64,000 nucleotides of DNA. Origin: an uncultured delta proteobacterium. Its GTDB lineage: Bacteria > Desulfobacterota > Deferrimicrobia > Deferrimicrobiales > Deferrimicrobiaceae. The stretch spans positions 255,022-319,021 of the forward strand of contig CAVXEY010000008.1 in NCBI GenBank assembly GCA_963760885.1, in the 5' to 3' direction. The notes under the pieces are model-generated. The model saw nothing but the letters and a program-made list of their open reading frames with translations, did not search any database and had not been told where the DNA came from. Both the position numbers and the translations under genes were made by a program. Below, one piece after another: positions 27,959 to 46,425 of the stretch (within the stretch, counting starts at the first letter, position 1; every line of letters starts with the position of its first letter).

Positions 27959-30900
27959 TCATCGGGGTTCCCTTCGGGAAGCGGGTTCTATCAACACCGA
28001 ATGGTTCCGGCGGTCGTCGACAAGGGGAATCGCCTCGTCCCGCAGTTCAACCCCGTCCATGGTCACGATCGTCCGTTCCTCCCCCGCGGGTAGTTGCCGA
28101 ACGTCGATTTCGTGGACCGTCTCGCGATACCGGTAATACACCTTGAACCCTTTCCATCCCGGCGGGAGGCATGGAGCAAAGCGCAGCCGGTCCACTTCCA
28201 GCGTCAGGCCCAGGAGGGATTCCACGATCAGGCGGTACATCCAGCCGGCCGAGCCCGTGTACCAGGTCCATCCTCCGCGCCCGGTGTGCGGCGGGAGCGC
28301 GTAGACGTCGGCGGCGACCACGTACGGTTCCACTTTGTAGATCGCCACCCCTTCCGGGGACTTCGAGTGGGTCACCGGGTTGATGATCCCCAGCAGCTCC
28401 CACGCGCGCCGGCTGTCCCCCAGCGCCGCGAACGCCATCGCCGTCCAGATCGCCCCATGCGTGTACTGGCCGCCGTTTTCCCTCACGCCCGGGACGTACC
28501 CCTTGATGTAGCCGGGATTCAGGGCCGATTTGTCGAACGGCGGATCCAGGAGCTGGATCAACGCGTCGTCGCGGCGAACGAGGCGCTGATCCACCGCCTC
28601 CATCGCCATGCGGGATCGCCCGGCATCGCCGGCCCCGGAGAGTACCGACCAGCTTTGCGCGATCGAATCGATCCGGCATTCGGCATTGGTCGCCGACCCG
28701 AGCGGCGTGCCGTCGTCGAAGTACGCCCGGCGGTACCACTCCCCGTCCCAGCCGTTCTGCTCGATATTCCGGCGCACCTGGGCCGCCTCCTTCCGGCAGC
28801 GATCGGCGAAGGCCGCGTCACCGGCCTGGAGCGCAACCCCGGCGAACCGCGTCAGCACTTCGTACAGGAAGAATCCCAGCCAGACGCTTTCCCCTTTGCC
28901 GTGCTCTCCCACGAGGTTCATCCCGTCGTTCCAGTCCCCGGACCCCATGAGCGGCAGGCCGTGCGTACCGGTGCCGAGACCTCTCAGGATGGCCCGCCTG
29001 CAATGTTCGTACAGGGGGGCCGCTTCCTCCGACCGGACGGGAAGATCGTAGTAGGAATCCTCCTCCGCGTTCACGGGGCGCCCTTCGATGAAGTGGACGT
29101 GTTCGTCCAGCACGCCGGTATCCCCCGTGCTCAGAACGTAACGGCACGTCGCCAGGGGGAGCCAGAGGAAATCGTCGGAACATTTCGTGCGCACTCCCCG
29201 GCCCGAGGGGGGATGCCACCAGTGCTGTACGTCCCCCTCGCGGAACTGGCGACCCGCGCACCGCAGCAGATGTTCGCGCAGAAGGCGCGGCTCCGAGTGC
29301 ACCAGCGCCATGGTGTCCTGCAGCTGGTCGCGGAACCCGAAGGCGCCCCCCGACTGGTAGTACCCGCTCCGGGCAAAGAGACGGGACGCGAGAACCTGGT
29401 ATTGGAGCCATCCGTTGGCCAGGACGTTGACGGCCGGGTCGGGGGTTTCCACCTGCACGGCGCCGAGGGTATGCTTCCAGTATTGCCAGACCGATTCCTG
29501 CACCTCGCGCGCCGCGGCGGATCCGCGGAAGCGACCCACCAGGTTCCTGGCGTCGTCCGCGTTCTTCCCCGCCCCAAGCCGGAAGACGATCTCGCGCTCC
29601 TGACCGTCGGCCAGTTCGAACGGCACCTGGATCGCGGCGCAGGGGTCCAGGGCGGCCCCCACCTTGCCCGAAAGCCGCGCGCGGGCCATGGCGGCCGGGC
29701 TCCGAAGCGAGCCGTTGCGTCCGAGGAATTCCACCCGGTCCCCGCTTACGGTCCGGGCCGGATCGTCCACGTCGAAGAACGCGACCCGGCCGTCGAACTC
29801 GGTGTTGTAGGAGTTCCGCGCAAGGAGCGCTCCGCTGCCGGGCTCGATCCGGGTGACCACGTGCATCGCCGATTTCGGCCGCAGATCCCCCAGCACCCAT
29901 TCCACGTATCCCGTGGCGGAGAGTTTGCGCGATCGGCCGGACTCGTTCCGCACTTTCAACACGGAGAACTTGACCGGCGCGTCCATGGCCACGTAAACCC
30001 GCAGCTCCGAGCGGATGCCGCCCTCCGCGTACTCGAAGACGCTGTAGCCGAATCCGTGCCGGGTGACGTACGGCTGCCTCCCGCGGCAGGGCAGCGGCGT
30101 GGGGGACCAGAAGCGGCCGCTCTCCTCGTCACGGATGTAAATCGCCTCCCCGCCCGAATCGCACACGGGGTCGTTGTTCCAGGGGGTGAGGCGGAATTCG
30201 TGCGCGTTTTCGCTCCACGTGTACGACTGGCCGCTTTCCGAGAGGATGCACCCGAAGTCCGGATTCGCCAGCACGTTCACCCACGGCGCCGGCGTCTCCT
30301 CCCCGTGCGCGGTCGAAATCACGTATTCGCGCCCATCCGGCGTGAACCCTCCCAATCCATTGAAGAAGATCAGGTCCCGCGGGGGCGGCCCGGACGGGGG
30401 CGGGGTTTCGTCGCGGCGATTCCGGGAAGGCCGGAGAGGCGGAACCGGCACCTCCGCGACCCTGCGGCGGTGGATCTGGTCCCACAGCGTTCCCCGGCTG
30501 TCGGTGAGGATGACGCGGGAGACCGTCTGGAACAGGACCCGGTCCTCGCTCGATATCTGGTCGCCGATCCGCAGGAAGATGCCGCCCGGCCGATCCGTGA
30601 ACCTCGCTTCCAGGCCCGCGGCGATCAGCCCCTGGATCTGTTCCTGGAGCATCTGCCGGTAACCGGCGTGGTCTTCGTTCCAGATCACCAGGTCCACCGC
30701 CAGCCCTTTCAACCGCCAGTACGCGTGGGCCTCCACGAGCTGGCGCACCAGCTCGATGTTGGACGGGTCTCCGATCTGCAGCAGCACGATCGGAAAATCG
30801 CCGGATATGGAGTAGCCCCACAGGCCGGATTGTCCGCGGCGGTTCTTGCCGAGGAGGCTCGCGTCGGCGCGCAGCAACGGATTGGCGTAGATGACGGAGC

Positions 30901-33900
30901 TGGCGAGGTGGCCGTACAGCTGCGCGTCGGCCTCCGTGGCGTTGATCTGCTGCAGAAGCACCTGGCTGTGGGTCCACGCCAGGTCGAAGACGCGATCGGC
31001 GAGCCGCCGATCCTGGTGCTTCTCGATGAGGCCCATGCAGACGTCCCGGGATTCCCCGACCCCGGTGACGATGTTGACGGTCGCCTCCTCGTCGGGGCCG
31101 AGCGTGATCCGGTGCCGGATCGCGACGATCGGATCGAGTACGGACCCCTGGCTGTCCGACAGGTCCGCGGTGCCGCGCAACGCCTGCGGATCCGCGACGG
31201 TGTTCCCCCGGCCCAGAAACCGCATGCGGTCGGTCTCGAAGGAAACTTCCCCGACGTCCCCCCCGCGTACCGACATCAGGTGAAACATCCACGGCGCCGG
31301 CTCGCCGGAGGAGCGGGGCCGGCGCGTGCAGAGGATCGCCTTCCGCTCGCGAACGATCTCGGTCTGGACGAAGAGGTTCCCGAACGCCGGGTGCAGCGCG
31401 TCCGCGGCGGGCGTTCCAAGGACCACTTCCGCGTAACTCGTGATCTCCACCGACCTGCGCGCCTGGGAGCGGTTGACGATCCGGACCCGGCGCACCTCGG
31501 CGTCGTCCTCGGGGGAAACGGCGATTTCCGTATGCGTTTCGAAATCGTGATCGCGGCGGCGGAACTCCACCCGCGCCTCCGAGAATATCGCCTCGTACTT
31601 CTCCGGTCGCTTGAGCGTCGGCTGGTGACGCGGTGGACCAGAACTCCCCGCTCGCGGCATCGCGGAGGTAGCAGAACGTCCCCCAGTTGTCGCAGGTGCC
31701 GTCCTCGCGCCAGCGCGTCACCGCGATGTCCTTCCAGCGGCTGTACCCGGCGCCCGAATTCGTGATCATCACGTGGTATCTGCCGTTCGACAGCAGCTGC
31801 ACCTCCGGTACGGGAGTGTCGGGGGTGCCGAACGAGCGCACCGGCATCTCGGGGACGCCGGAAGCCGTGGGGAGGCCGGAGAGCTCGGCGGCGAGGGTGT
31901 AGGACGCCGTGGCCTTCGGAACCCGTTCCTGAAGCAGGAGCGTGGTCGCCTGGAACAGCGGATCCGACTCGAACCGCTTCTGCATCGGACGGTCCAGGAG
32001 CAGGGAATCCAGGGAGAGGAGGCTCATGCCCTGGTGGTGCGCCATGAAGGACCGGACGACCACGCTCGTCTGCCCGCGTCGCTGTCGCGAGGGGGTGTAG
32101 TCGATGGCCTCGTAAAAGCCGTATTTACCGATCAACTCCTTGTCCTCGAGCAACTGCAGATTCCGGCACGCCTCCTCGGGGGCCACCATCAGCGCGAGAA
32201 CGGACGCATACGGCGCCACGACCAGATCCGACGCCAGCCCCCGCTTGAGCCCGAGGCCGGGCACCCCGAACGCCCGGTACTGATAGTTGAGGCGGACGTC
32301 GACCTGGTTGTATCCGGATTCCGACATGCCCCACGGCACGCCGCGCTTCTTCCCGTACTCGATCTGCCGCCTCACCGCCGCCTTGCAGGTACGGTCGATC
32401 AGCGTGTTCTCGTACGTCGGCATCACCAGGAGCGGCATGAGGTACTCGAACATCGAACCGCTCCACGAAAGGAGAATCGGTTCCCCCCCGGTGGCGGTGA
32501 GCAGGCGCCCCAGGGCGAACCACGACTCCTGCGGCAGTTGTCCCTGCGCGATCGCCACGAACGAGCACAGTCTCGCTTCCGAAGCCAGCAGATCGTAATA
32601 CCCGGAGTCCCGTCGGCGCTGGCTGACGTTGTAGCCGATCGCCAGGAGATGGCGCCCCTTGTCGTAGAGGAAGTCGTACTCCACGCGGGCGAGCTCCCCG
32701 CATTGCAGCGCGAGGCGGTCGATCTCGGAAATCCTTTCCCTCGCGCGCCGGTTCGCCTCCGGTACCAGCAGCCGGAGCTCGGTTGACCAATCGCTCTTCT
32801 CCTCGAGCGCCGCCAGCGCGCGCAAAGTCGGGATCCCGTCGAGGCCGGGGAAGTCGCCGATGAACGCCACGTCGTCGAATGCGGCACGGCATTGACGCTC
32901 GAGGGACCGCGCCCACCGGCTCGGCGCGCCGTCCTCGTCCCCCCGGAAACTCCCGGCGATCTCCCCGGCGCACCCCGTCAGCCGCTCGAGGCAGAGTTTC
33001 GCCGTCCCGGGCGTGGCGGGAGGGGAACCGAGCGAGGAATCCAGGATCTCCCGGAATTGCGCGAGCGGGGGAGGCGGGGGCCCGTCCACGGCATCCGCGA
33101 GAACCTGAAAGGTGTCGCGGATGCCCTCCAGCCATCGCTCCCCGAGGACGCCGTGACCCGGAAGCTCGAGCAGGCCCTGCCGCAACGTCAGCAGGTGGCC
33201 CGAGAGGTTCCCGCTGTCCACCGTCGAGACGTAGAGAGGGAGCAGCGGTTCCAGGGATTGCGTGTCGTACCAGTTGTAGAAATGGCCTCTGTGCCGCGCC
33301 AAGGTTTCCATCGTGCGCAGCGCATTCTCCGTGCGCTCGAGGAGTTGCCCCGACGGAATGTACCCGAAGTCGTAGGCGGCCAGGTTCGCGAGGAGCGCGA
33401 GCCCCATGTTGGTCGGCGACGTACGGTGGGCGATCGCGCCGATGCGGTATTCCTGGTAGTTGTCCGGCGGCAGCCAATGCTCTTCCGGACCGACGAACGT
33501 CTCGAAGAACGCCCAGGTCCTGCGCGAAAGCTTCCGGAGAAAGAGGATCTGGCTCGCCGAAAGGGCGGCCCTGCGGCGGGCGAGCGGGAGGCTGATCCAC
33601 CAGGCGACGGCGGGAGAGGCGAACCACAGGGCGAGGACGGGCCCGGCCGTCGCCAGCGCGGCCGGCCTCGAAACCACGAGGTCGATCGTCGCGGCGGCGG
33701 CGATCGCGGGGGCGATCCACATCGACCGGAAAAAAACCGCCGGACCCTCGCCGCGCCGGCGATCCGGGGTCCCCGACGGGCGCCATTCGAGAAGACGCCT
33801 GCGCGTGAACAGCATCCGCCCGGCCGTGCGCACGACCGCGTCCAGGCTGAAAAACGCCTCGTGCGGAAGGCACGCGAGCGTAAACCCCGCCTGGGCGAAG

Positions 33901-36518
33901 CGCCGTCCCGCGGAGCGCGCTTCGGCGGCGAGGTGCTGCGGCAGCAGCACGTCGGGGGGCTTCCGGAACATCTCGAGGCCGGAAGCCATCACCGAAGGAA
34001 GCAGGAGGATCCCGACTACCGACACGGTCCAATACCAGGCGGCGGGCAGGGAGGTCCAGCCCGCCAGCAGCAGGAGCGTCAACGCGGAAGGCTCGAGGCT
34101 GCGCCGAAGATTGTCGAAGACCTTCCATTGGGAGAGCCCGGAGAGCGGGTTCCTGCGGCGGGCGTCGCCGGGACCGGGAACGCGCGACAGCAGCCACCCG
34201 GCGATCTGCCAATCCCCGCGGATCCATCGGTGGCGGCGGCTTACGTCCGCGAGGTAACTGGACGGGTACTCCTCGTACAGGCTCGCATCGCTCAGCAGTC
34301 CCGCCCGCGCGTGGCACCCTTCCAGGAGATCGTGGCTGAGGATCCGGTTCTCGGGAAGCCGTCCCTTGAGGGCCTGGTCGAACGCGTCGACGTCGTAGAT
34401 CCCCTTTCCGATGAAGGAGCCTTCCCCGAACACGTCCTGGTACACGTCGGAGACGGCGCGCGTGTACGGGTCGATCCCCGGTTCGCTCCCGAACAATCGC
34501 GCGTACCGCGACCGGTTCGTGCCCGACAGGCTGTCGGCCACGCGCGGCTGCAGGATGCCGTGCCCCTCGGAGATCCGCTCCATCCGCCCGTCGTACCGCG
34601 CGCGGTTCAGCGGGTGCGCCATGGCTCCGACGAACTGGCGGGCCGAGTCCCGCGGCAGCTGCGTATCCGTGTCGAGGGGGATCACGAATTTGACGTTCGA
34701 CAGATCCGCGGTCCTGCCGACGACGACGGAAAAACGGTCCCGTGCGTCGCCGCGAAGAAACAGGTTCAGTTCCGCGAGCTTCCCCCGCTTGCGTTCGTAG
34801 CCCATCCAGGTCCGCTCCCGCGGGTTCCATCGCCGCGGGCGGTGGAAAAGGAAGAACGGATCGCTCTTCGCGCTCCCGTACTTGCCGTTCAGCTCCTCGA
34901 TCCCCTTCCGGGCCAGCCGCAACAGCTCGCCGTCTTCCGGGGCCGTTTCCTCGTCCGCATCCAGGAAGTCCGTCAGCAGGGCGAAGTGCAGGTTTTCATC
35001 CCGGTTCGCCAGGAACCGGACTTCCAGGGACTCGACCAGGGACTCGATGTTCCGGGGGCTCGCGAGCATCGCCGGAATCACCACCAGGGTGCGCGATTCC
35101 GGCGGAATGCCTTCGGAGAAGTCCATTCGCGGCAGCGGATGCGGCGCCACGAGCACCGTGGAGAGCCAGTTCACCAGCGCGACCGCCAGCCGGCTGGCGC
35201 ACAGCAGGGAGAGGGCGCCGAACAGGGCGAGCGGTCCCTCCCGCACCCCGCCGGCATGCGCCTTCGCCAGCAAGGCCCCGGAAAAAACGACCGTCAACAG
35301 CGTGATCGAGCCCAGATAGAGGTGCAGGGAAAACCGACCCGCCGTCCGCCGAAGGGTCTCGGGAAGGGGCAGCCGCGCCCCCGCCGCCCGCTCCAACCGC
35401 GGCAAACCCTTGTCGACCAGGTAAAACCCGACGTGCGCCGCGCGATCGTCCGGTCCGCTCCCGGCGGCGGCTTCACCGGCCAGCAGGATCGCCTCGCGCG
35501 CCACGTCGGCTTCGTGCAGACGGCTCCACTTCGCGATCTTCTCGACGACGTGGCGGTACCTGTCGCGGGTGGTGAAATCCATCCGGCCGTAGGTTCCTCC
35601 CGGGTCCTCGCGCAACGCCTGCTCGACGGCGCTCATCGTCTCGACGAATTCGCGCCAGTCCATCGCCCCCAGGAACCGGAGGCTGGCGATGCTGTTGCTG
35701 ACGGAAACCTGGTCGGCGGCCTTTTGCTGGTTCTCCGACCGGACCATCTCCTCGATCGTCAGGCCGGACTCCGAAAGCCGCTGTTCGATCCAGGTGAGGG
35801 GCAACGCCAGGGCGGTGCTCTGCCCCTGCAGCCGGCGGGCGAATTCCGCGACGAAGGAGCTCACCATCGGCGGATCCGACCGCGCCATGTCCGCGGTCAG
35901 CAATATCAGGCTCTTCGGGTCCTTTTCGGAGATCACCACCATCTGCTCCGCCCAGCGGGCGGCGAGATCCCGGTCGATGGAACCGGCGGCGACCCGCGCT
36001 CCGACGCGCCGGAGATTCTCGATCAGCGCCAGGCGCAGCATGATGGGGATGGCCCACAATTCCCCCAGCGTCAGGACGGTCACCTTCTGGTAGGACGCCA
36101 CGAAACCGGTGAGACTTTCCGGGTCCACCCGCCCATCGCCGTGCGAGATCGCCTCGTGCGCGATGTCGTACACGCGCGGGAGTCCGGCCGACGGCCCGTC
36201 CAGCAGGCGGGGCAGTTCCCGGCTGTACCCCTTCGGCAAGTGTCTCTTGGCCGTGCGGATCTGTTCCTCGATCAGGTAGAAGTTGTCGAGGAGCCATTCC
36301 CCGGCCGGGGCGATCCGGCGGTTCGCATCCACCGCCGAGGTCAACAGGCTGCAGGCTCCCGTCAGAACGCGTTCATTCTCCGCCAGCCGGTTCAGAAGCT
36401 TGTCCCGGGTTCCTTCCGGTCCCAGCCTGTGGGAGCCCGCGAGCGTCTCGCCGTGAATCTTCATCCGGTCGCTGCTGAACAGTTCCGAACGCAGCGGCGA
36501 CTCGTCGCCGGCGTACAT
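27959..36518 (-). pseudogene. ndvB: Cyclic beta-1,2-glucan synthase (NdvB/Cgs, ~2850 aa) interrupted by a single-base frameshift near 31628
   Basis: N-terminal SPLRSELFSSD...ETLAGSHRL and a GT-84 glycosyltransferase region. The C-terminal GH94-like phosphorylase domain (YEAIFSEARVEFRR, IAVSPEDDAEVRRV) lies in a second frame; the two ORFs overlap at 30129-31660. Removing one a at + strand ~31628 restores ...FWSTAHQPTLKRPEKYEAIF... Confidence 0.8.
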
Positions 36519-36803
36519 TTTCGCCGATCCTCTCCCGCGGATGCCGGCGCCCAAGAGGCGCATCTTCGCGAGGATGGTCTTTCCGCCTGCCTTCAAGCTC
36601 GATGTCTCCCGGGGTTATGAACGTTGTTCCCGCCGGCGATGACCAGGACCCCACGCGGCGAAGGCCCGCCTGCCCCTTCGCCGGTTCGAAACGGAATGCG
36701 GGGTTCTTTGCGACGGGTCCTTGTTCCCCTACATGGTGACAGGAACACGGCGTACCGTAAACGACATTCCCATGAAGCGATACGCGGTACCGGCGGGGAC
36801 GGC

Positions 36804-38684
36804 CTATTCGACCAGGCCGGAAGCGGTTTCCTTGTCCGGGTCGACGTTCTCCCCGGCCGGGCCCGGAGAGGGCTTCTGCCACCGGCTCAGGGTGATCGAC
36901 TGGATCGCGGCGGCGAGGCCGAAGGAGAAGATGCTCGACACCAGCGGCATGCCCCTGGTGCCCAGCAGGTCGGAGGTGGACTTTACCGCACCCACCGCGA
37001 TGACCAGGATGGCCACGTTGCGGATCTCCCGGTTGCGGGTGCGGAAGGCGTAGAGGCCAAGCCCCAGGGCGGCGAGGTTGATGACGACCGACTGGGTGCA
37101 CTGGAAGGCGTCCGGCCCTCCGGGCCCGGCGGGAAGGATGATCCACCAGGCGATCACGCGAAGGAGGAAGAAGGATCCGGTCAGGGCGGCCAGGAGGGTG
37201 ACGGCGCCGCTCAGATCCCGCGTGTCGTAGGCCCCGAAGAAGGGGGAGCGGGCGGGCGGGGCGTGGTGTCTGCACCATCGGTAATGGACCAGGGCGGCCG
37301 CGGCCAGCACGGCGCTGGGGACCGCTCCGGCCAGGGGCGACGCGGGGAGTCCGTCGGCAAGGAAAGAGAACGCCAGGGACACGACGGCGTAGACCTGGAG
37401 CAGGTAGGAGGTCGCCCGTACGGCGCCGCTCCCCCACCGATCGGAGAGGACGGCCACGCCAAGGGCCGCGGCTCCCAGAACGGGGGCGGCGGCCAGCACG
37501 CTGCCGAGGGCGGCGGGGAGTGCCAGCACCATGAGGGCGCTCCCGGCGACGACGAAGGAGTTGGTGCCGGGGGCTCCCTCGATTCTTCGCGTCGCGAGCC
37601 AGATGGCGGCCCCGAAATGGAGGAGGGCGAACGCGATCGCCACCAGGCTGAGCGCGAGGGCGCTTCCTGCGGTCTCTCCCACGACGACCCGGGCCGCCAG
37701 GTACGACCCGACGACGTTGATCGTGGGAAGGCAGAAATCGAAGACGGAGAGTTTCGCGCCGCGGCTCCGGACAATGCCCAGGAGGGCGATCGTCAGGAAG
37801 ACGACGCCGACGACGGCCAGGACCGGAAGGAACCACTCGGGGGCCAGGGTGCGCGCCGCGGTGATCCTGTGGGCGGCGACGGCCTCGAGCCGCATCCCCC
37901 AGAGAAGGAACATGGCCAGGGTGACGAGGAGCACGGTCCAGCGGAGCCAACCGCAACGCCTGAGGGACCCCGCGTAGTATCCCAGGAGGTTGGCCGTAAG
38001 GAGGACCATGAAGAGGTACGGGAAGAAAGGGTCGGGGTAGTCGATGGCCGCGCCGGCCAGGCACATCCCCAGGGTACCGACCGACACCGGGAGAAAAACC
38101 GAGAACCGGCGGCTGACGAACGCCATGCCGGCGCCGGTGGCCATCAGCGTCCAGTAGGCGGGAACGAGGGGGAGCGACCCGAACCGGCCGTGGGTCTCGA
38201 CGACGATGCTCGACATGAGGATCGCCCCGCAGGCGACGAACACCGGGGCCAGGGAGCTGCCCCGGCGATACTGGTACCAGCCGGCAACCATGAGGGCCGC
38301 GGCGTAGCCCATGCCGAGCCCCATGCCGGGGAGGGGGTTGACGATGCCGCTGTCCGTGATGGTCCGCAGGATCAGGGCGACCACCATCAGGAAGCAGAGC
38401 GTGGCCAGGCGGGGAAAGAGCGACGCCTGGCTCGCCCAGCGGATCGCCTCGTCGGAGAGGTTGTCGGACTCCCCTGCGGCGGGCTTGCCCGGCGGTTTCC
38501 CGGGGCGCGGGGGAACCGCCGGCGGGAGGATCGTCTCCGGGCGGGCCGTGGATGCGGCGGCCGATCGATCCCGGGCGGATGCCGGCCGTCGTCCCTCGAG
38601 ATCCGCGACCCGCCGGCTCAGGCTCTCGACATGCTCGTAAAGCCGGTCGACCTTCTCCTCGATCGTCAGCTTCTGATCGCGCAT
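36804..38684 (-). CDS. Large polytopic membrane protein (DUF2339-like): N-terminal cytoplasmic coiled region, then ~16 TM segments
   Basis: Hydrophobic periodicity throughout. N-terminal KLTIEEKVDRLYEHVESLSRRVADLE. Start chosen at the ATG with a GGAG RBS. Confidence 0.45.
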   Translation of the reverse strand: MRDQKLTIEEKVDRLYEHVESLSRRVADLEGRRPASARDRSAAASTARPETILPPAVPPRPGKPPGKPAAGESDNLSDEAIRWASQASLFPRLATLCFLMVVALILRTITDSGIVNPLPGMGLGMGYAAALMVAGWYQYRRGSSLAPVFVACGAILMSSIVVETHGRFGSLPLVPAYWTLMATGAGMAFVSRRFSVFLPVSVGTLGMCLAGAAIDYPDPFFPYLFMVLLTANLLGYYAGSLRRCGWLRWTVLLVTLAMFLLWGMRLEAVAAHRITAARTLAPEWFLPVLAVVGVVFLTIALLGIVRSRGAKLSVFDFCLPTINVVGSYLAARVVVGETAGSALALSLVAIAFALLHFGAAIWLATRRIEGAPGTNSFVVAGSALMVLALPAALGSVLAAAPVLGAAALGVAVLSDRWGSGAVRATSYLLQVYAVVSLAFSFLADGLPASPLAGAVPSAVLAAAALVHYRWCRHHAPPARSPFFGAYDTRDLSGAVTLLAALTGSFFLLRVIAWWIILPAGPGGPDAFQCTQSVVINLAALGLGLYAFRTRNREIRNVAILVIAVGAVKSTSDLLGTRGMPLVSSIFSFGLAAAIQSITLSRWQKPSPGPAGENVDPDKETASGLVE

Positions 38685-39044
38685 GCGTGAATCTCCGTGG
38701 CTCTGCCGCGGACGTCCGTGCGGACGGGGGGGAGAGCCCTCTTCCAAAACGCGGTTTTAATATATTACCAGTGACGATTGCCCGGATGGCAAGAAAATCT
38801 TTCGGCGGGAAGGACCGCGCCCCGGCCAAGGCAGGCTGGCGGCGTCGATTTCCGGTTCCGGACGGGAGGATGGGACCCGGACTTCGGTGAGCATAGGACA
38901 AATACCGGTGAGGGAATCAGACAGAAAGCGGCGCGCGGTTCGGACAGAAGCCGATACCGAAGACCGGCGGACGGGATTATGTTGGTTGCAATCCTCAAAG
39001 GCTTGCGCCTGCCGGGTGAAGGACGAGGGAAGCAGGAGGGAATG

Positions 39045-39365
39045 ATGGGAGCGGTAACGGTCTATCGATTGGATGACGGCAGGAATACCGGATATCGAAC
39101 CAGACACCCTATCGGGACCGTATTGGAGCTGCGGATATCCGAACGGGGGAACAACGACAGGGACCTGTTGCGGCTGGCACGGAAACTCTTCGCTTTGGAT
39201 CCGGCGGACGCCGCCCACGTCCTCATCGACGTGGGTCAAGGCCGGGATCCATACCTCGCGGGCGGACCCGGTCCGGCTTGGCGGGGTAGTTTCGGAGATA
39301 CCCCTTTTTCACGAATGGTTGATGCTCCTCCACGTATTCCTGGTCGTCAAGGTCCTGTAGACTGA
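39045..39365 (+). CDS. Small conserved hypothetical protein, paralog 1 (AVTVYRLDDG...RTRHPIG...DLLRLAR family), C-terminally extended relative to paralog 2
   Basis: RBS AGGAGGG lies 7 nt upstream. About 60% identical to the 40916-41161 product. The ~150-nt upstream leader is also duplicated. Confidence 0.5.
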   Translation: MGAVTVYRLDDGRNTGYRTRHPIGTVLELRISERGNNDRDLLRLARKLFALDPADAAHVLIDVGQGRDPYLAGGPGPAWRGSFGDTPFSRMVDAPPRIPGRQGPVD

Positions 39366-39404
39366 TTCTGCAGAGGAAGGCGGTTTCATCGGGATGGTGC
39401 GATC

Positions 39405-39695
39405 ATGACGGTAAATTGGTTGTTGAGAATCATGACGGGAAGCGCATTGTTTGCGTTGGCAACGGATTCGTTCGGAGCCGATGCCGCCGGGGTACTGGGG
39501 CCTGGCTCCACGGCCGGGTTGTTGATCCTGATCGGGTTGGGCCTGGTCGGGTTGGGGTTACGGGGTCGGAAGACGGACTTTCAAGAAAAACCTGTCGACG
39601 GTCGCTACCTGTCCTTGGGAATGAGGGAGGTGAATCTTCGCGGGACATCCCTGTTCCGGCGAACAAGGGGTAAGGAGGGCAAACGGAAAGGATGA
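39405..39695 (+). CDS. Small secreted/membrane mini-protein with signal peptide and a PEP-CTERM-like segment (GPGS + TM + RGRK)
   Basis: MTGSALFALATDSFGADAA signal-like segment, then LLILIGLGLVGLGLRGRK. Weak RBS. Confidence 0.3.
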   Translation: MTVNWLLRIMTGSALFALATDSFGADAAGVLGPGSTAGLLILIGLGLVGLGLRGRKTDFQEKPVDGRYLSLGMREVNLRGTSLFRRTRGKEGKRKG

Positions 39696-39773
39696 AGTAC
39701 CGGGATTCATCGGCCGATACGAGGGGAAGCGGCGGGCTTCCGCTTCCCGCAACCTGGAATCAAGGAGGTTCCC

Positions 39774-39887
39774 ATGTGCCAGACCTGTGGATGCAGTGCG
39801 TGCAAGACCTGCGGCAAGGAGATCAAGAACGGGGTATGCGTCGGCTGCAGCAAGCCCTCCGAAAAATGCACTTGCAAGAAGCCGTAG
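39774..39887 (+). CDS. 37-aa cysteine-rich peptide (9 Cys), metallothionein-like
   Basis: Translation is MCQTCGCSACKTCGKEIKNGVCVGCSKPSEKCTCKKP. Strong RBS AAGGAGG 6 nt upstream; a perfect terminator hairpin follows directly. Absent from the ORF track (shorter than 60 aa). Confidence 0.5.
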   Translation: MCQTCGCSACKTCGKEIKNGVCVGCSKPSEKCTCKKP

Positions 39888-39902
39888 AGGGGATTCCGTA
39901 AC

Positions 39903-39950
39903 GAGGAAAGGAGGGAATCCGGCCTGAGGCCGGATTCCCTCCGGTTTTTA
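39903..39950. terminator. Strong (likely bidirectional) intrinsic terminator between the Cys-peptide gene and sodA
   Basis: GGAGGGAATCCGGCC-tgag-GCCGGATTCCCTCC followed by GGTTTTT. Confidence 0.7.
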
Positions 39951-39983
39951 TCGCGGTGGATCCGAAGGCGGGGTTTACGCCGT

Positions 39984-40595
39984 TTACGCCTTGGCCTTCC
40001 CGAAGTTGTCCGCGACCTGCGCCCAATTGACGGTGTTCCACCACGCCTCGATGTATTCGGGACGCCGGTTCTGATACTTCAGGTAATAGGCGTGCTCCCA
40101 GACGTCGAGGCCGAAGATCGCCTTGCCGCCGTCGATGACGGGATTGTCCTGGTTCGCGGTCGACTCGACGACGAGTTTCCCGCCGCGGATCAGCAGCCAC
40201 GCCCAACCGGACCCGAATCGCGATGTCGCGGCCTGGGTAAACGTTTTCTTGAAATCCCCGAAGTTGCCGAATGTGCTCTTGATGGCGTCGGCCAGATCCC
40301 CCGACGGCTCGCCGCCGCCTCCCTTTTTCATGATCTTCCAGAACATGGAATGATTCATGTGGCCGCCGCCGTTGTTGCGCACGGCGGTACGAACGGCCTC
40401 CGGCACGTTGCCGATCCGTTCGAGCAGCTCCTCGACCGGAAGTTTTTGAAGCTCGGGGTGGCCTTCGAGAGCCTTGTTGAGATTGTTGACATACCCCCCA
40501 TGGTGCTTGTCGTGGTGAATCTCCATCGTCTTCGCGTCAACGTACGGTTCAAGTGCGTCGAAGGCGTATGGGAGCGGCGGCAAAATATGTGTCAT
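39984..40595 (-). CDS. sodA: Fe/Mn-family superoxide dismutase (Mn-type signatures)
   Basis: Carries [17 protein letters not shown], the ANQD Gln position, and DVWEHAYY. Confidence 0.9.
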
Positions 40596-40915
40596 CGGGC
40601 AAATCTCCTTTCCAGCCGGCTCGTGACCGGTATCATCTTTCCCTTAAGATGCATCGGGGACACGGGAACGTTTCCCCGCGCGATCTTCTTTATCCGGCGC
40701 AAGCCGTGGGTCCGTTCCGGAGCCCGCGAGCGCGCGCGGCGGCGAATGCGGTTCCCCGCGGCTATAGGACAAACACCGGTCCGGGAATCAGACAGACGGC
40801 GGATCGCGTATCGGACAAAAGCCGATACCGGGGGCTTGCGGGCGGGATTACGTTGTAGGTAATCCCTGAAGGCTTGCGCCTGCAAAGTGATGGACGAGGG
40901 AAGCGGGAGGAAACG

Positions 40916-41161
40916 ATGCGAGCGGTCACGGTTTATCGGTTGGATGACGGCGGCAATTTCAGTTTTCGCACCAGGCACCCCATCGGGTCCGTAATGGAAC
41001 TGCGAACACAGGATCGGGTGAACAACTCCAAGGACCTGTTGCGCATGGCACGACGACTCTTCGCGGTGGATACGACGGACACCGTGCGCATCGTCATCGA
41101 CGTGGGTCAGGGACGGCAGGCAACCCCGCAGGAGCGGACCCGGGACGGCTTGGCGGGGTAG
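40916..41161 (+). CDS. Small conserved hypothetical protein, paralog 2 (81 aa), heading the radical-SAM operon
   Basis: MRAVTVYRLDDGGNFSFRTRHPIGSVMELR...DLLRMARRLFAVD...VIDVGQGR. The leader matches the paralog 1 leader. Confidence 0.5.
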   Translation: MRAVTVYRLDDGGNFSFRTRHPIGSVMELRTQDRVNNSKDLLRMARRLFAVDTTDTVRIVIDVGQGRQATPQERTRDGLAG

Positions 41162-41300
41162 TTTCCGTGGATGTCGCCTCTTTGCGCATGCCTGTCGCCG
41201 GATTCCTAACACCGGAAATTTCACCACACAAGGGCGCGATGAGAGATAATGATCGACAGCGCATCCGGTCGTCGACTCTCCTCCCGACGAAAGGTCAGGC

Positions 41301-42788
41301 ATGAAGGTTCTGCTGCTGTATCCCCAATTCCCCGATACGTTCTGGAGCTTCCGCCACGCCCTCCCGTTCATCGGAAAACGGTCCGCCTATCCCCCCCTGG
41401 GACTGCTCACCGTTTCGGCGATGCTCCCGCCGCACTGGGAACGGAAACTGGTGGACCTCAACGTGGAGGAGCTCCGCGACAAGGACATCGCCTGGGCCGA
41501 CGTGGCCTTCCTGAGCGCCATGCTGGTCCAGGGGCCGTCCCTTGCGCAGGTGATCGCCCGTTGCCGGAGGGCGGGATTGCGGACGGTGGTGGGCGGACCG
41601 GTCACGAGCGACGGCAACCCTTCGTACGAAGGCGCGGACCACATCGTCCGGGGCGAGGCGGAAAGGGTGATCGACGAGCTGGTCTCCGACCTCGAGGCGG
41701 GCAATGCGCGCCGCGGTTACGAAGCCGACGGGCGAACGGACATGACCCGGGTCCCTCCCCCCGACCTGCGCCTGGCGCGATTGCGACGCTACAGCGCGAT
41801 GCCCATCCAGTACTCCCGGGGGTGCCCGTTCTCCTGCGAGTTCTGCGACGTCATCGAGCTCTTCGGGCGAAACCCGCGCACCAAGTCGGCGGGGCAGGTC
41901 CTGGAGGAGTTCGAACAGCTCTACCGCATGGGGTGGCGGGGGTCGGTGTTCATCGTCGACGACAACTTCGTCGGCAACCGGCAGGCCATCAAGGACCTGC
42001 TTCCCCGGCTCGCCGCGTGGATGGGCGCCCACGGCAATCCGTTCTCCCTGTTCACCCAGGCGTCGATCAACCTGGCCGAAGACGACGAACTGCTCTCCCT
42101 GATGCGTGCGGCCCGCTTCAACAAGGTGTTCATCGGGATCGAGACCCCTTCCGCGGAATGCAACCGGGCGGCGGGCAAGATGCAGAACGTGAAGGCCGAT
42201 CTCTTGGCGTGCGTGCGGCGTATCCAGGAGCACGGGATGGAAGTGATGGGAGGGTTCATCGTCGGCTTCGACCAGGATCCCCCGGAGATCTTCGAGAGGC
42301 AGATCGCCTTCATCAGGGAGGCGGCCATCCCCATCTCCATGGTAGGCGTCCTGATCGCGCTCCCCAACACGCGGCTGTGGCGGCGGCTCTCCGAAGAGGG
42401 CCGGATCCTGCGGCAGAGCATGGGGAACAACACGGAGGCGCTGCTGAATTTCATCCCCAGGATGGACCCGGAAGCGCTCCTCGCGGGCTACCGGAAGGTG
42501 CTGGCATCCATCTACAGCCCGTCCGAGTATTTCGAACGCGCCCAGGCGATGATCAGCCGCCTGGGGATCCGGCCGAAAACGCGCCTGGTCGGCTCGGACT
42601 ACCTCGCACTGTTCCGGTCGTTCGTCCGGCAGGGGATCATCGCCCGGTACCGGGTCCACTACTGGCGATTCATCGGCAGAACCGCCCTCCGCACGCCGAG
42701 GCACCTGGGCCTGGCGGTCACGCTGGCCATCATGGGGCACCACTTCTTCGTCCTTTCCCGCCGGATGCAAGCGAAACCGACCCGGTGA
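41301..42788 (+). CDS. B12-binding-domain radical SAM protein with C-terminal DUF4070 (BchE/HpnJ-like class)
   Basis: N-terminal B12-binding fold (LLLYPQFPDTFWS...LGLLTVSA), the radical SAM motif CPFSCEFC, and a DUF4070-like tail (LLNFIPRMDPEALLAGYRKVLASIYSP). Confidence 0.85.
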   Translation: MKVLLLYPQFPDTFWSFRHALPFIGKRSAYPPLGLLTVSAMLPPHWERKLVDLNVEELRDKDIAWADVAFLSAMLVQGPSLAQVIARCRRAGLRTVVGGPVTSDGNPSYEGADHIVRGEAERVIDELVSDLEAGNARRGYEADGRTDMTRVPPPDLRLARLRRYSAMPIQYSRGCPFSCEFCDVIELFGRNPRTKSAGQVLEEFEQLYRMGWRGSVFIVDDNFVGNRQAIKDLLPRLAAWMGAHGNPFSLFTQASINLAEDDELLSLMRAARFNKVFIGIETPSAECNRAAGKMQNVKADLLACVRRIQEHGMEVMGGFIVGFDQDPPEIFERQIAFIREAAIPISMVGVLIALPNTRLWRRLSEEGRILRQSMGNNTEALLNFIPRMDPEALLAGYRKVLASIYSPSEYFERAQAMISRLGIRPKTRLVGSDYLALFRSFVRQGIIARYRVHYWRFIGRTALRTPRHLGLAVTLAIMGHHFFVLSRRMQAKPTR

Positions 42789-42859
42789 TCCCCGGCGCGA
42801 CTCCCTTCCGGATGATTGGAATACGAAAGACCGAATGACTTCATGCAGTTATAATCATA

Positions 42860-43579
42860 ATGTCCGTCGCGTTCCTGGCGTCGCTTCTCAGTTCCATGAG
42901 CGGCGCCGGCGCAGCGATGCTGACGACTCCGGTCTGGCTCTCCCTTGGCTTTCCCCTCCCGGTGGCGATCGCCTCAAACCAGTTGAATGGTGCGGCCTGG
43001 ACCCTGATCGCGGCCCGTAATTACCTGAAAGGCAAAACCGTGGACTGGGCGCTGATCAGGATCATGATATTCTGCGGGCTTGCGGGCGCCTATGTCGGGA
43101 CCATCATTGTGCGCGGCGTGGATGCGCATATCCTGCAACGCGTCATCGGCATGATCATCATCGCCCTGGTCGTAGTAGTGGCATTCAACCCCGCGCTGGG
43201 CCGCACGGAAAGGGAGCCGCTCCTCTCACGCCGCCTGACCGGCGTTCTGGCCTTTCCTCTTGGGGTGTACGAATCCTTCTTCGGATCGGGCAACGGCCTG
43301 TTCACTTCATTACTGCTGTCGAAAACCCGCGGGATGCCCTTGCTCACCGCTCTCGGCTGTTATTACCTTGTCGCCTTCTTCTGGAACGGCTTCGCCGTAT
43401 CCGTCTACAGTGCGGCCGGATTCGCCGACAGCAGCCTGATGGTCCCCTCCACGGCGGGTTCCATGCTGGGAGCCTATATCGGCTCACGGGTCGGCCGACG
43501 GAAGGGATATGGTCTGGTAAGGGCGATGTTTCTCACGGCAGGAGGAGCGCTGGGAGTGAAATTGGCGCTGGGGTGGTAA
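42860..43579 (+). CDS. TauE/SafE (DUF81) family anion exporter
   Basis: Two 4-TM repeats with Gly-rich motifs (SGAGAAMLTTP, FGSGNGLF). Confidence 0.75.
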   Translation: MSVAFLASLLSSMSGAGAAMLTTPVWLSLGFPLPVAIASNQLNGAAWTLIAARNYLKGKTVDWALIRIMIFCGLAGAYVGTIIVRGVDAHILQRVIGMIIIALVVVVAFNPALGRTEREPLLSRRLTGVLAFPLGVYESFFGSGNGLFTSLLLSKTRGMPLLTALGCYYLVAFFWNGFAVSVYSAAGFADSSLMVPSTAGSMLGAYIGSRVGRRKGYGLVRAMFLTAGGALGVKLALGW

Positions 43580-43653
43580 TGTTTCATCCCCCTTGGCAAG
43601 GCACTGCAATACTTTTACTTATCGAAAGGTAAGATTCCCGAATTGCCGAACCC

Positions 43654-46425
43654 TTAGTGCGCCGGCCCGGTCAGCAAGCGCTTGAGCACATCCATCGCCT
43701 TGCCGAATTTCCCCCAGTCCCCCTGCTGCATCGCTTTCTGGGCATCCTCGAACTGCGCCCTCGCCTGGTCCAATTCCGGTTGCCGGAGGGACACCTGCGC
43801 AGGATTCCGGGGTTGCCGTGTCCCGAAGAGCGATTGGATTGCCTCATCGAGTGTAGACTCCATTACCACCTTATCCCCCGAAATCATGATCACGCGCTTG
43901 AGTTGGGGGAAATCCGTGCCTTCCGCCGTGAGGTACACCGGCACTACATAGAGAAACGAGTTCTCGATCGGAACCGCGATCAGGTTCCCGCGAATGACTC
44001 TCGACCCTTTTTGATCCCAGAGGCTCAGTTGCTGGGAGATCGTAGTGTTCTGATCGATCATCGCCTCGATTTGCATCGGGCCGTAGACCAGCTTCTCCTT
44101 GGGAAGTTGGTAATAGAGCATCTTCCCGTATTCGGGGAAATCGCACCTGGCGGCCATCCAGGAGATCATGTTGTCTCGCTTCTGAGGCGTGAAAGAAGTC
44201 ATGAGGAGGTACTCAAGCCGGTCGCTTCCGGGGAGCTTCATCAGGATGTAATAGGGCTGCATGGGCGCGACCTTGCCCGCGTACTTCTCTTGGGGGAGCA
44301 CCCAGAGGTCCTCCCGGTTATAGAAGACCTGCGGAACCGTCATGTGGAACGTTCTGTACAGGTCGGCCTGGAGGGAAAAGAGATCCTCCGGATACCGCAG
44401 ATGATTTTTAAGATCCGCCGAGAGCCGATTCAGGTCCATGAAAACACCAGGAAACGCGCGGCGATAAACCGCCAAGACGGGGTCGTTCGGATCCATGATG
44501 TAGAATCGAACGGTTCCGTCGTACATGTCCACAACGATTTTCACGGAGTTTCGAATGTAGTTCAGCCCTTCTCCGAAGGCCGCCGCGTGGGGACTGGAGT
44601 AGGGAAAGTGATCCGAGACGGTGTAGGCATCCTGGATCCAATACAGTTTGCCCTCGCTCACCACGGCGTAGGGATCCTGGTCGAGGCGCAGGAAAGGAGC
44701 GATCTGCCACACGCGCTCCTGAACGCGCCTCCAGATCTGGATCCTGCTTTCCGGCCGGAGATAGGAGGTGAACAGGATGTTGATGTCGGATTGCGTCCAG
44801 GCGAACAGGAGCCGCTTCCACAAGCCGTCCAGCGGGATACCTCCTGTTCCCTTGTAACTCGTGTACACATTCTGATTCCCCTTGGGGTAGTCGAGCTCTT
44901 TGACGCCCGTCGCGACGATCCGATATCCCGGCATCGACTTGCCGTAGTAGATGGAAGGCCGTTTTATGGTTAGGCCGTAAGCGGATTCGGGTGGGATGTT
45001 CTCGATAAGATACTCCGGAAAGCCTCCCCCGATAGCCTTCGAGACGAAGCTCATGACCAAACCATAACCATGCGTAAACTGCAACTTCTGGTTAACCCAG
45101 GTTTGGGCTTCAGCGGGGAGGCTCGCGGAGAGCTCGCGGGCCGAAAGCATCACCTGATGATAACCATCCGGCAGATGGTAGCGGTCCACGTCCGCCTCGT
45201 AAAACTGGTAATAGAGTCGTATCTCCTGGGCTTGTTTGTACGTCTGCAGCAATGGGCGCCAGTCCCAGAGTCGGATGTTCTGGATCGTGTCTTGATTTCT
45301 GGCAATCACCTCGGACGTCAGATCCGACAGCGCCGGGTAAGATGTTTCCTGGATCGCGTCGAGCCCGTAGGCCTTTCGGGTGAACTCTATGTTGTTCTTG
45401 AGATACGGGGTTTCGAGGACCAGTTCGTTCGGCTGTACAATGAACCTCTGAAAGAGTGACGGCACCAGCAAGACCGCGACGATGTACAACCCCACGTAGA
45501 TCCAGGATCCAACAACGATCGCCCTGAGTCGCGGACGGAAGACATTGAGCGCAAGCAGCGCGCACAGCGCCGCCGAGGCGCCGGCCATGATCCATAAGGC
45601 GATCCGGGTCACATGGCTCGCCGTATAGCCGGCTCCGTAAACTACTCCCAGTGTGGAGTAGAGGAGTTCGTAGTGATCCAGGTAAAACCCCCACCCCCAA
45701 TTGGCGACCAGTACGAAGAACAGGATGGACAGATGTGGAACGGCCTTCGCGCTCCGGCCTTCCATCTGTCCGCTGCGGATGAACCGCAGTACCCCGAAGA
45801 ACGCGTAGAAGACCAGTACGGCCACGACCGTCATCAGCGTCAATACGGTCAGGCTGCTTTGCAAAAGCTCATAAAAGGGGAGACGGAACAGATAAAACCC
45901 GGCATCGACCCCGAAGAGGGGATCGGATAAACCAAAAGATCCGCCATAACGGAATCGGAGATACGTATCCCATTGCGCATAGAAGACCTGCGCAAAAATC
46001 AGGGCGGCGAAAGCAGCGACCGCGCCCATGGCCAGTTTCAAAATCGTGGGGGAGATCTGGATACCGAGTCTCGCGGCAACGGTAGACTCGCTTGTCAAAG
46101 TACCCGCCAGGAACGTGGCGCCGTTCCTCATCGCGAAGCGAAGATTGATCCAGAGGAACAGAAGTGCGACAACGAAAGCCGCGCAAAACAGCTTCCACTG
46201 CAGGAACAGGAGGGTCCAGAAGACGCCGGAGTAGCCGACCTCCCGCATCCACAGCCCCTTCTGTATCCAGCCGGAAATGACGGTCAGGAGAAGGATGAAT
46301 ACGACCGCGGCAACAGTGATGATTTTCAGCGGACGCCATCGCCGGGGGATGGGGTAATTTCCGGCAAATCTACCCTTTTCGCCCGCAAGCAGCCTTGGCT
46401 GCTCGCCGTGTGTCGGTTTCTCCAT
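43654..46425 (-). CDS. UPF0182-family large membrane protein (N-terminal ~7 TM, large extracytoplasmic domain)
   Basis: Size, N-terminal TM block, and C-terminal ...AQKAMQQGDWGKFGKAMDVLKRLL. Start chosen at the ATG after the GGGAGGG RBS. Confidence 0.55.
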   Translation of the reverse strand: MEKPTHGEQPRLLAGEKGRFAGNYPIPRRWRPLKIITVAAVVFILLLTVISGWIQKGLWMREVGYSGVFWTLLFLQWKLFCAAFVVALLFLWINLRFAMRNGATFLAGTLTSESTVAARLGIQISPTILKLAMGAVAAFAALIFAQVFYAQWDTYLRFRYGGSFGLSDPLFGVDAGFYLFRLPFYELLQSSLTVLTLMTVVAVLVFYAFFGVLRFIRSGQMEGRSAKAVPHLSILFFVLVANWGWGFYLDHYELLYSTLGVVYGAGYTASHVTRIALWIMAGASAALCALLALNVFRPRLRAIVVGSWIYVGLYIVAVLLVPSLFQRFIVQPNELVLETPYLKNNIEFTRKAYGLDAIQETSYPALSDLTSEVIARNQDTIQNIRLWDWRPLLQTYKQAQEIRLYYQFYEADVDRYHLPDGYHQVMLSARELSASLPAEAQTWVNQKLQFTHGYGLVMSFVSKAIGGGFPEYLIENIPPESAYGLTIKRPSIYYGKSMPGYRIVATGVKELDYPKGNQNVYTSYKGTGGIPLDGLWKRLLFAWTQSDINILFTSYLRPESRIQIWRRVQERVWQIAPFLRLDQDPYAVVSEGKLYWIQDAYTVSDHFPYSSPHAAAFGEGLNYIRNSVKIVVDMYDGTVRFYIMDPNDPVLAVYRRAFPGVFMDLNRLSADLKNHLRYPEDLFSLQADLYRTFHMTVPQVFYNREDLWVLPQEKYAGKVAPMQPYYILMKLPGSDRLEYLLMTSFTPQKRDNMISWMAARCDFPEYGKMLYYQLPKEKLVYGPMQIEAMIDQNTTISQQLSLWDQKGSRVIRGNLIAVPIENSFLYVVPVYLTAEGTDFPQLKRVIMISGDKVVMESTLDEAIQSLFGTRQPRNPAQVSLRQPELDQARAQFEDAQKAMQQGDWGKFGKAMDVLKRLLTGPAH

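Follow-up and report, generated by a model that had tools for sequence, protein, structure and literature searches.

Genes and signals at the Cys9 locus

The window, by which we mean the whole 64,000-nt stretch of DNA that was analysed, has a G+C content of 65% and carries on its forward strand a short run of small genes, the last of which encodes a 37-residue peptide with nine Cys residues (positions 2, 5, 7, 10, 13, 22, 25, 32, and 34). The features discussed below are:

38893–38979, + strand: copy 1 of a triple-repeat motif (found with nhmmer), a putative promoter/operator and presumed operon start
39045–39365, + strand: first cistron, the VYR small protein of a family without a name (MGAVTVYRLDDG...), recognized by conservation
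39405–39695, + strand: second cistron, 96 aa with a signal-like N-terminus, conserved in two related loci (L006 and L001)
39692–39729, + strand: csbD remnant, a start (ATGAAG) fused to the last ~9 codons (GATTCATCGGCCGATACGAGGGGAAG) with the stop lost, recognized by alignment
39762–39768, + strand: Shine-Dalgarno sequence AAGGAGG, read from the sequence, 5 nt 5′ of the Cys9 ATG
39774–39887, + strand: Cys9 mini-protein gene, 37 aa, translation MCQTCGCSACKTCGKEIKNGVCVGCSKPSEKCTCKKP, stop TAG at 39885–39887
39910–39949, + strand: intrinsic terminator, a 15–16 bp G+C-rich hairpin followed by TTTTT, the presumed operon end
40764–40850: motif copy 2

The Cys9 ORF reads exactly as the first-pass annotation had it and is an extreme compositional outlier: Cys makes up 24.3% of its residues versus a mean of 2.4% (sd 2.5%) among the 456 window ORFs of at least 30 aa, the next-best of which reaches 16%. 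The expression signals reported earlier need minor corrections: the AAGGAGG ribosome-binding site is present, but its spacing is 5 nt by count rather than 6; the terminator is indeed a perfect hairpin with a T-run (inverted repeats of 16 nt each, 39910–39925 and 39927–39942, then GGTTTTTATC), but it begins 22 nt past the Cys9 stop and does not quite follow "immediately". The gene has a strong ribosome-binding site and a terminator and encodes, as had been proposed, a genuine and probably well-expressed small protein.

The flanking genes are also as first described. Upstream is the 96-aa ORF; downstream, at 39984–40595 (−), is a convergent gene for a Fe/Mn-family superoxide dismutase (sodA) with Pfam Sod_Fe_N and Sod_Fe_C matches, whose best NCBIfam model is the Mn type, although the score is below that model's cut-off. 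The terminator lies 42 nt beyond the sodA stop. Does the proximity of sodA reveal what Cys9 does? Because window sodA is convergent, it should be transcribed separately from the Cys9 gene, and a superoxide dismutase (SOD) gene occurs within 6 kb of the Cys9 gene in only three of ~95 related loci: the window, L075, and L073. The two other SODs, 26–28% identical to that of the window, are encoded ~110 nt after the Cys9 gene and convergently (L075:6221–6706, −) and 4 kb away (L073:7541–8026, −). This is a mild enrichment, as yet unproven, and the role tied to sodA that had been suggested for Cys9 is only weakly backed.

The window also encodes a radical SAM enzyme (41301–42788; B12-binding, class B, with a C-terminal DUF4070 domain and without SPASM) 1.4 kb from the Cys9 gene. 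This gene sits beyond sodA and the terminator, just downstream of motif copy 2 and a second VYR paralog, and may belong to the same regulon as the other genes that follow the motif; apart from an unlinked, 27%-identical gene in L059, it is absent from the other Cys9 loci. A functional link of Cys9 to either sodA or the B12 radical SAM gene was rejected, since neither adjacency is conserved.

A giant GH94/glucoamylase-type protein, which resembles cyclic β-1,2-glucan synthase, is encoded farther upstream (27959–36596, −) in two overlapping long ORFs (27959–31660 and 30129–36596); a frameshift or an error in sequencing could account for the split. A giant gene of this type lies directly 3′ of the Cys9 gene in L001, and the very large unannotated ORF that follows the Cys9 gene in L005 is possibly another.

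A presumed small operon that ends in Cys9

The presumed operon starts at motif copy 1, in which the repeats GGACAAAT, AGACAGAA, and GGACAGAA are found at 38896, 38919, and 38942, and the GGATTA end at 38974–38979. The VYR protein encoded by the first cistron has relatives in seven other loci (tblastn matches in L002, L008, L010, L014, L018, L027, and L052); the family has no Pfam or NCBIfam match. A paralog is encoded at 40916–41161 (MRAVTVYRLDDG...), and the two genes, together with their motif copies, are parts of a 400-nt direct repeat (38893–39293 vs. 40764–41165; 79% identity) that flanks the block of the 96-aa ORF, the Cys9 gene, and sodA. The 96-aa protein has a PEP-CTERM-like Gly/Leu-rich helix (GPGSTAGLLILIGLGLVGLGLRGRK) followed by RGRK and a basic tail of ~40 aa; homologs occupy the corresponding place in the operons of L006 (68% identity) and L001 (52%), and the one in L001 has a weak PEP-CTERM match that remains below the cut-off (E = 0.014).

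The spacer between the 96-aa ORF and the Cys9 gene preserves a trace of another cistron: it aligns to the 3′ end of intact csbD (..FIGRYKGK*), which is found directly 5′ of the Cys9 gene in 11 other aligned loci (Pfam CsbD, E = 5e-21). The csbD-Cys9 pair is conserved and is intact in most Deferrimicrobium-like loci, where the typical order is motif, VYR protein, small membrane protein, CsbD, Cys9, and terminator. For the interval from csbD to the Cys9 gene no consensus structure is predicted, and the idea of a conserved hairpin there was dropped. In the window, motif copy 1 lies 5′ of the Cys9 gene on the same strand, and there is no other terminator-like site on the + strand between 38893 and 39910; the same layout, with no terminator between motif and gene, is present in 15 other loci. 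We infer that the window Cys9 gene is the last cistron of a small co-transcribed stress operon, which would be read from the motif (38893–38979) to the terminator (39910–39949).

Outside the Deferrimicrobium-like lineage the Cys9 gene stands alone. It is preceded by a near-consensus σ70 promoter or −10 element in several clades, including at least Nitrospirota (TTGACA-N17/18-TATAAT), delta-type lineages, and Patescibacteria (extended −10). In three patescibacterial loci (L040, L046, and L085), a 71-aa Cys-containing membrane protein without a Pfam match is encoded upstream, its gene ending 113 nt before the Cys9 gene.

The triple-repeat motif and a putative stress regulon

The motif upstream of the VYR gene is ~90 bp long; its core (CATAGGACAAACACCGGTCCGAGAATCAGACAAACGGCGACTCGCGTTTCGGACAGAAGCCGATACCGAAGGCTGGCGGGCAGGATTA) contains three GGACA-type (GGACAAAC-type) boxes spaced 23 nt apart, and the motif ends in GGATTA. 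An nhmmer search found 25 copies in the window and Deferrimicrobium-like loci; besides the window, motif loci are L001 (5 copies), L002, L004, L006–L008, L012, L014, L016–L018, L021, L022, L027, L029, L052, and L096–L215. A scan of metagenome contigs yielded more than 120 contigs with the motif; with these and the other loci taken together, 135 loci contain 176 sites. In 16 loci, including the window, a Cys9 gene follows the motif, in L004 and L021 directly.

What does this element control? Downstream of the 176 sites are genes for DUF5670 proteins (51), the VYR protein (MRAVTVYR...; 33), three-BON OsmY-like proteins (27), a Met-rich LTXXQ/Spy-like protein (11), and also CsbD, a lipoprotein, and other small membrane proteins. 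Twenty of the sites have the Cys9 gene, typically ~630 nt downstream and as the final gene. At eight sites an ECF σ factor gene is directly behind the motif, which suggests autoregulation. The motif forms divergent back-to-back pairs (L001), and, together with the lack of RNA structure and covariation, this leads us to read it as a DNA-level promoter/operator; a riboswitch or sRNA was rejected (RNAalifold, −4.6 kcal/mol, no covariation), and so was, by eye, a σ54 promoter (GG and GC stand one base too close together, and TTGC is missing). The motif also has no Rfam match. To judge from gene content, the motif and the genes behind it look like a stress regulon of MBNT15/Deferrimicrobia.

Two further observations concern this putative regulon. 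A second family of unannotated small proteins (MCYNCGCGRPADDMGDPKNITDKTFEEAAKA..., 54 aa) is encoded at L021:4542–4706, directly 3′ of the Cys9 gene, and at four other motif sites; it shares an N-terminal MCxxCGC with Cys9 and comprises 151 clusters, all labelled "hypothetical", from Deferrimicrobiaceae, Gemmatimonadota, Blastocatellia, and other groups. In an Omnitrophota MAG (L077:6001–7150), the Cys9 gene is followed by genes for an ECF σ factor 35% identical to the motif-linked one, a putative anti-σ factor that contains a Cys/His motif of zinc-binding type (HLAGCRDCKE), and an LTXXQ/Spy-like protein; this is a second, independent juxtaposition of a Cys9 gene with an envelope-stress module.

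Cys9 relatives and their coding status

The first-pass annotation had named absence of the ORF or its Cys pattern from orthologous loci as the observation that would speak against it; the opposite was found. A homologous-protein search with the Cys9 peptide extended by three in-frame upstream codons returned six close homologs (80–94% identity); phmmer over 1.8 billion representative proteins gave 20 representatives at E < 1e-3, and a profile search extended the relatives to at least 153 protein clusters, all unnamed or "hypothetical protein" and none with a Pfam domain. Among the genomes of 185,579 species (one per species), 241 loci encode Cys9 relatives. The best 80 of these 241 loci all come from metagenome-derived assemblies, nearly all labelled as MAGs, and include Ca. 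Deferrimicrobium/Deferrimicrobiaceae (MBNT15; 89–97% identity to the window peptide), many Planctomycetota (Phycisphaerae, Pirellulales, and Brocadiia), Nitrospirota, Omnitrophota, Patescibacteria, Micrarchaeota, Dehalococcoidales, and several delta-type lineages. Given the identity to the Deferrimicrobium relatives, the window probably derives from that lineage; Jettenia and Brocadiaceae, known from anammox enrichments, carry the gene as well (L063 and L069). The family spans at least eight phyla, almost exclusively lineages of anoxic or suboxic habitats, and some MAGs carry two or three copies. No relatives were found in plasmid and phage collections.

All 86 recovered peptides (34–50 aa) start with MC and keep the nine Cys residues. 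The invariance of Cys2, Cys5, Cys7, and Cys10 is partly built in, because the genome scan required MC[QD]xCGCx[PA]C; however, the last five Cys residues and the unbiased phmmer matches give the same pattern. Across phyla, identity is 60–70% over 34 aa, with non-Cys residues unusually well conserved. Of the 86 family loci, 71 have an SD-like core 5′ of the gene and 31 a hairpin with a T-run 3′ of it.

Is the peptide made, or is the ORF a chance reading frame in a non-coding transcript, whose ribosome-binding site and terminator serve something else? The ORF is short and most of its relatives are missing from annotated protein sets, as one would expect of a chance frame. However, in 85 distinct nucleotide sequences the summed entropy at codon positions 1, 2, and 3 is 16.9, 15.0, and 44.1, and each of the nine Cys codons alternates between TGC and TGT; the variation at third positions and the TGC/TGT alternation point to purifying selection at the protein level. 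Together with the conservation across at least eight phyla, the fixed start and length, and the lack of an Rfam match (window positions 36000–44000, E ≤ 1), these data effectively refute the chance-ORF explanation, whose probability we consider negligible, and the non-coding transcript envisaged as an alternative at the outset is not borne out. By these comparative criteria, Cys9 is confirmed as a genuine protein-coding gene under purifying selection.

Why has it been overlooked? Of ten exact sequences from NCBI MAG loci, eight are missing from a collection of 15 billion proteins, which implies that the gene is usually not called, and an exact-sequence look-up found no record of the window peptide. 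Literature searches for sequence strings and for the Cys pattern returned nothing relevant. The family has no counterpart among curated families or in the literature, although molecules of this kind, small Cys-rich metal-binders such as zinc ribbons and metallothioneins, are familiar; the peptide described here is the founding example of an unnamed family.

Anatomy and predicted fold of the peptide

The family consensus, MCQTCGCxPCKxCGxxIxNGVCxGCxKPxxxCxC, carries a short tail that varies between members. Besides the Cys residues, G6, G14, and I17 (V in 2 of 85 sequences) are invariant and V21 and G24 nearly so; Q3 and P9 are invariant or almost invariant as well, and Phe, Tyr, Trp, and His are not among the common residues at positions 1–34 of the 85 sequences. 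The tails range from KKK to EEDLGEEGMEEE and include long acidic runs, while some members stop at Cys34; tails and cores range between strongly basic and strongly acidic, so that the family keeps no common net charge. Neither a signal peptide nor a leader is present in the Cys9 protein, and no enzyme is conserved as its partner. Two variants hint at a modular organization: in L083 (6001–6153) the C-terminal VCxGCxxPxxxCxC module is repeated to give 13 Cys residues, and in P0023 the first three Cys are missing.

The middle of the peptide, C10xxC13G-x8-C22xGC25, is laid out like a zinc ribbon. A profile-based comparison with the PDB gave weak matches only (E 0.01–0.1), all on Cys4 zinc ribbons or C4C4 RING sites, with Cys10, Cys13, Cys22, and Cys25 aligned to the Zn ligands of the eL37 and bL32 ribbons or the NOT4 RING; E-values in this range denote similarity at the level of a motif only. 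The AF2 model has a mean pLDDT of 80 (62 for residues 1–10 and 82–89 for the remainder) and contains a β-hairpin at residues 16–18/21–22; structure searches gave no significant match. From its sequence, Cys9 is almost certainly a translated cytoplasmic mini-protein with a fold that depends on metal-thiolate bonds.

How could nine thiolates be arranged? Cys10/13 and Cys22/25 may form two CxxC knuckles joined by a β-hairpin (residues 16–22), i.e., a Cys4 zinc-ribbon-like site. Cys2/5/7 and Cys32/34 could then make a second Cys4 site, leaving one Cys over, or join into a small bridged M2-3Cys9 cluster. Methionine aminopeptidase probably removes Met1, since it accepts a small residue such as the Cys at position 2; this would leave an N-terminal Cys. 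The zinc-ribbon-like CxxCG-x8-CxxC, the csbD partner, and the stress-type promoter motif had all been missed in the first-pass annotation.

Cys9 and the known small Cys-rich proteins

Cys9 has no Pfam or NCBIfam match at E ≤ 1, and for 45 relatives searched at E ≤ 10 these databases returned only chance-level matches to zinc fingers and eukaryotic metallothioneins. The models for bacterial metallothionein (PF02069), rubredoxin, and ferredoxin have no match among the 45 relatives at E ≤ 10, and PF12749 is hit at chance level only (E = 0.66; 4 of 45 members). The metallothionein-like label that had been given to the peptide is apt for its composition but not for its ancestry: at 37 aa, with 24.3% Cys (>~20%), CxC and CxxC spacings, and no aromatics or His in its core, it fits the operational description of a metallothionein, whereas homology to either family is not supported.

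The closest analogs are instructive. The bacterial metallothionein SmtA carries a local CxCEPC string. SmtA/BmtA proteins (PF02069), like Cys9, are small, cytoplasmic, and have nine Cys; they hold a zinc-finger-like fold inside a metal-thiolate cluster and protect against metal and oxidative stress, and the CxCEPC of SmtA resembles the CGCEPC of many Cys9 members. Unlike Cys9, SmtA is ~56 aa long and has aromatics, other Cys spacing, and two His ligands; the Cys9His2 ligand set of SmtA/BmtA has no counterpart in the Cys9 core, which lacks His, and homology is not detectable. The β-domain of vertebrate metallothioneins (M3Cys9) also packs nine Cys into ~30 residues with CxC and CxxC spacings, is Lys-rich, lacks aromatics, and has a C-x-C-K-K ending; however, the conserved GxxIxNGV hairpin of Cys9 suggests a defined zinc-ribbon fold, unlike the disordered apo-protein of the β-domain. 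The eL37 ribbon and the NOT4 C4C4 RING, the best, though weak, profile matches, are domains of larger proteins that bind nucleic acids or act as E3 ligases.

CxxCG knuckles are the signature of rubredoxins, and desulforedoxin is ~36 aa long. Cys9 shares the knuckles with rubredoxin and desulforedoxin, the size with the latter, and an association with anaerobes with both; however, these proteins have four Cys and an aromatic core, whereas Cys9 has neither aromatic residues nor an HMM match to them.

The Zrd protein of P. aeruginosa, compared here by description, is an unannotated small double zinc-ribbon protein that is induced by Zn and Cd via the MerR-type regulator CadR and has been proposed to act as a metallothionein-like metal sink (PMC12301328). 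Zrd and Cys9 are both encoded by small ORFs missed by annotation and contain CxxC pairs; in Zrd, two CXXC-N10-CXXC ribbons follow a disordered N-terminus, whereas Cys9 starts at residue 1 and combines one putative ribbon with five extra Cys, and it has no link to a metal sensor such as the one that controls Zrd (PMC12301328). The case of Zrd shows that similar unannotated genes are now being recognized (PMC12301328).

Metal buffer, adaptor, redox protein, or peptide precursor?

Several observations favor a buffer or stress role for Cys9 over service to a fixed partner: the tails vary, some genomes have two or three paralogs, and ORF clustering within 5 kb of the 86 loci found no partner common across phyla. 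Pfam contexts in other lineages are mutually unrelated (glycoside hydrolases, G6PD, DUF2231, and others). The patchy distribution and the operational metallothionein composition are also in line with a buffer. Because the motif in relatives precedes csbD, BON/OsmY-like, DUF5670, Spy/CpxP-like, and ECF genes as well, Cys9 is probably produced during a general or envelope stress response. Ca. Deferrimicrobium is predicted to live as a facultatively anaerobic iron reducer equipped with SOD and catalase (PMC9386147), a lifestyle that makes metal and oxidant stress plausible. On balance, we give about even odds (~50%) to the reading that Cys9 is a cytoplasmic metal-thiolate protein of ~4 kDa that would serve as a metallothionein-like metal or redox buffer and would be expressed under stress in this lineage. 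Thiophilic metal ions (Zn2+, Cu+, Cd2+, and possibly Fe2+) would be sequestered or kept buffered by the protein, whose thiolates could also take up oxidants. Against this reading, neither a metal transporter nor a regulator that responds to metals (MerR, ArsR, Zur, or CsoR type) is conserved near the Cys9 genes.

The conservation of non-Cys residues and the near-consensus promoters count against a buffer and would fit a housekeeping adaptor too. Could the Cys residues simply hold a rigid mini-fold, a structural zinc ribbon that docks onto one macromolecular partner such as RNA polymerase, the ribosome, or a protease? The highly conserved core (G6, P9, G14, I17, N19, G20, V21, G24, and P28), the presence of the family in the reduced genomes of Patescibacteria and Micrarchaeota, and the weak profile similarity to the ribosomal eL37 and bL32 zinc ribbons all speak for such an adaptor or regulator, as do monocistronic genes that combine a near-consensus promoter or −10 element with a strong SD in several clades, an arrangement that suggests constitutive high expression. 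Yet we judge it unlikely: the lack of a conserved net charge speaks against a common function in nucleic-acid or ribosome binding, nine Cys exceed the needs of a single ribbon, 241 loci among 185,579 species genomes, with two or three paralogs in some, is a patchy distribution, and in MBNT15 the gene resides within stress operons. A redox-active iron protein, which would use a rubredoxin/desulforedoxin-like Fe(Cys)4 site or a small Fe-S cluster to supply electrons to oxidative-stress enzymes in anaerobes and microaerophiles, would make sense of the CxxCG knuckles, the desulforedoxin-like size, the near confinement of the family to lineages of anoxic or suboxic habitats, and the convergent SOD gene that adjoins Cys9 in two unrelated lineages (the window and L075). 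It appears quite improbable nonetheless, given that rubredoxin and ferredoxin models do not match, that the aromatics which pack around rubredoxin iron sites are missing from the core, that there is no ferredoxin-type CxxCxxCxxxCP motif, and that no reductase or oxidase is conserved nearby, the SOD adjacency being limited to the three loci noted above.

The last alternative, a RiPP precursor of the SCIFF/ranthipeptide kind, perhaps matured by the B12 radical SAM enzyme encoded at 41301–42788, draws on the local resemblance of CQTCGCSACKTC to the SCIFF core and on the 1.4-kb distance to that gene. SCIFF peptides (TIGR03973) and Cys9 do share a short Cys-rich string and occurrence in anaerobes; however, SCIFF has a conserved leader of ~20 aa, six Cys, and an adjacent radical SAM/SPASM maturase, and Cys9 has none of these. 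All 86 peptides begin with MC, and since conservation in every member sets in at residue 1, there is no room for a leader; TIGR03973 and other RiPP-precursor models match neither the peptide (E ≤ 1) nor the 45 relatives (E ≤ 10); no radical SAM cluster is shared among the 86 loci, and neither a follower nor a maturase, protease, or exporter is conserved. The one nearby enzyme lacks SPASM and lies on the far side of sodA and the terminator. We therefore rejected this identity, against which the first-pass annotation had already argued from the missing leader, and regard it as extremely improbable.

At slightly less than even odds, Cys9 would represent a new, widely distributed class of ultra-small prokaryotic metalloproteins. 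In effect this would be a new metallothionein family, 34–45 aa long, in which an N-terminal Cys ligand is combined with a zinc-ribbon core and which in MBNT15 would act as an effector of a newly recognized general stress regulon of the ECF type.

Implications

[quoted passage not shown] Pfam, NCBIfam, the PDB, and the majority of genome annotations lack the Cys9 family. Its gene is real, widespread, and easily tested, and it does not overturn current understanding. Should the proposed role hold, a 4-kDa protein present in at least eight phyla would become a new tractable model for minimal metal-thiolate folds, one that, at ~35 residues, is within reach of chemical synthesis; the class would be abundant in uncultured, mostly low-oxygen lineages, including CPR bacteria and DPANN archaea, and would have stayed invisible because gene callers skip it. 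Cys9 would then also be a marker for the handling of metal and redox stress in uncultured bacteria of sediment, peat, and groundwater, and the triple-repeat motif offers a first handle on a stress regulon in MBNT15/Deferrimicrobiota.
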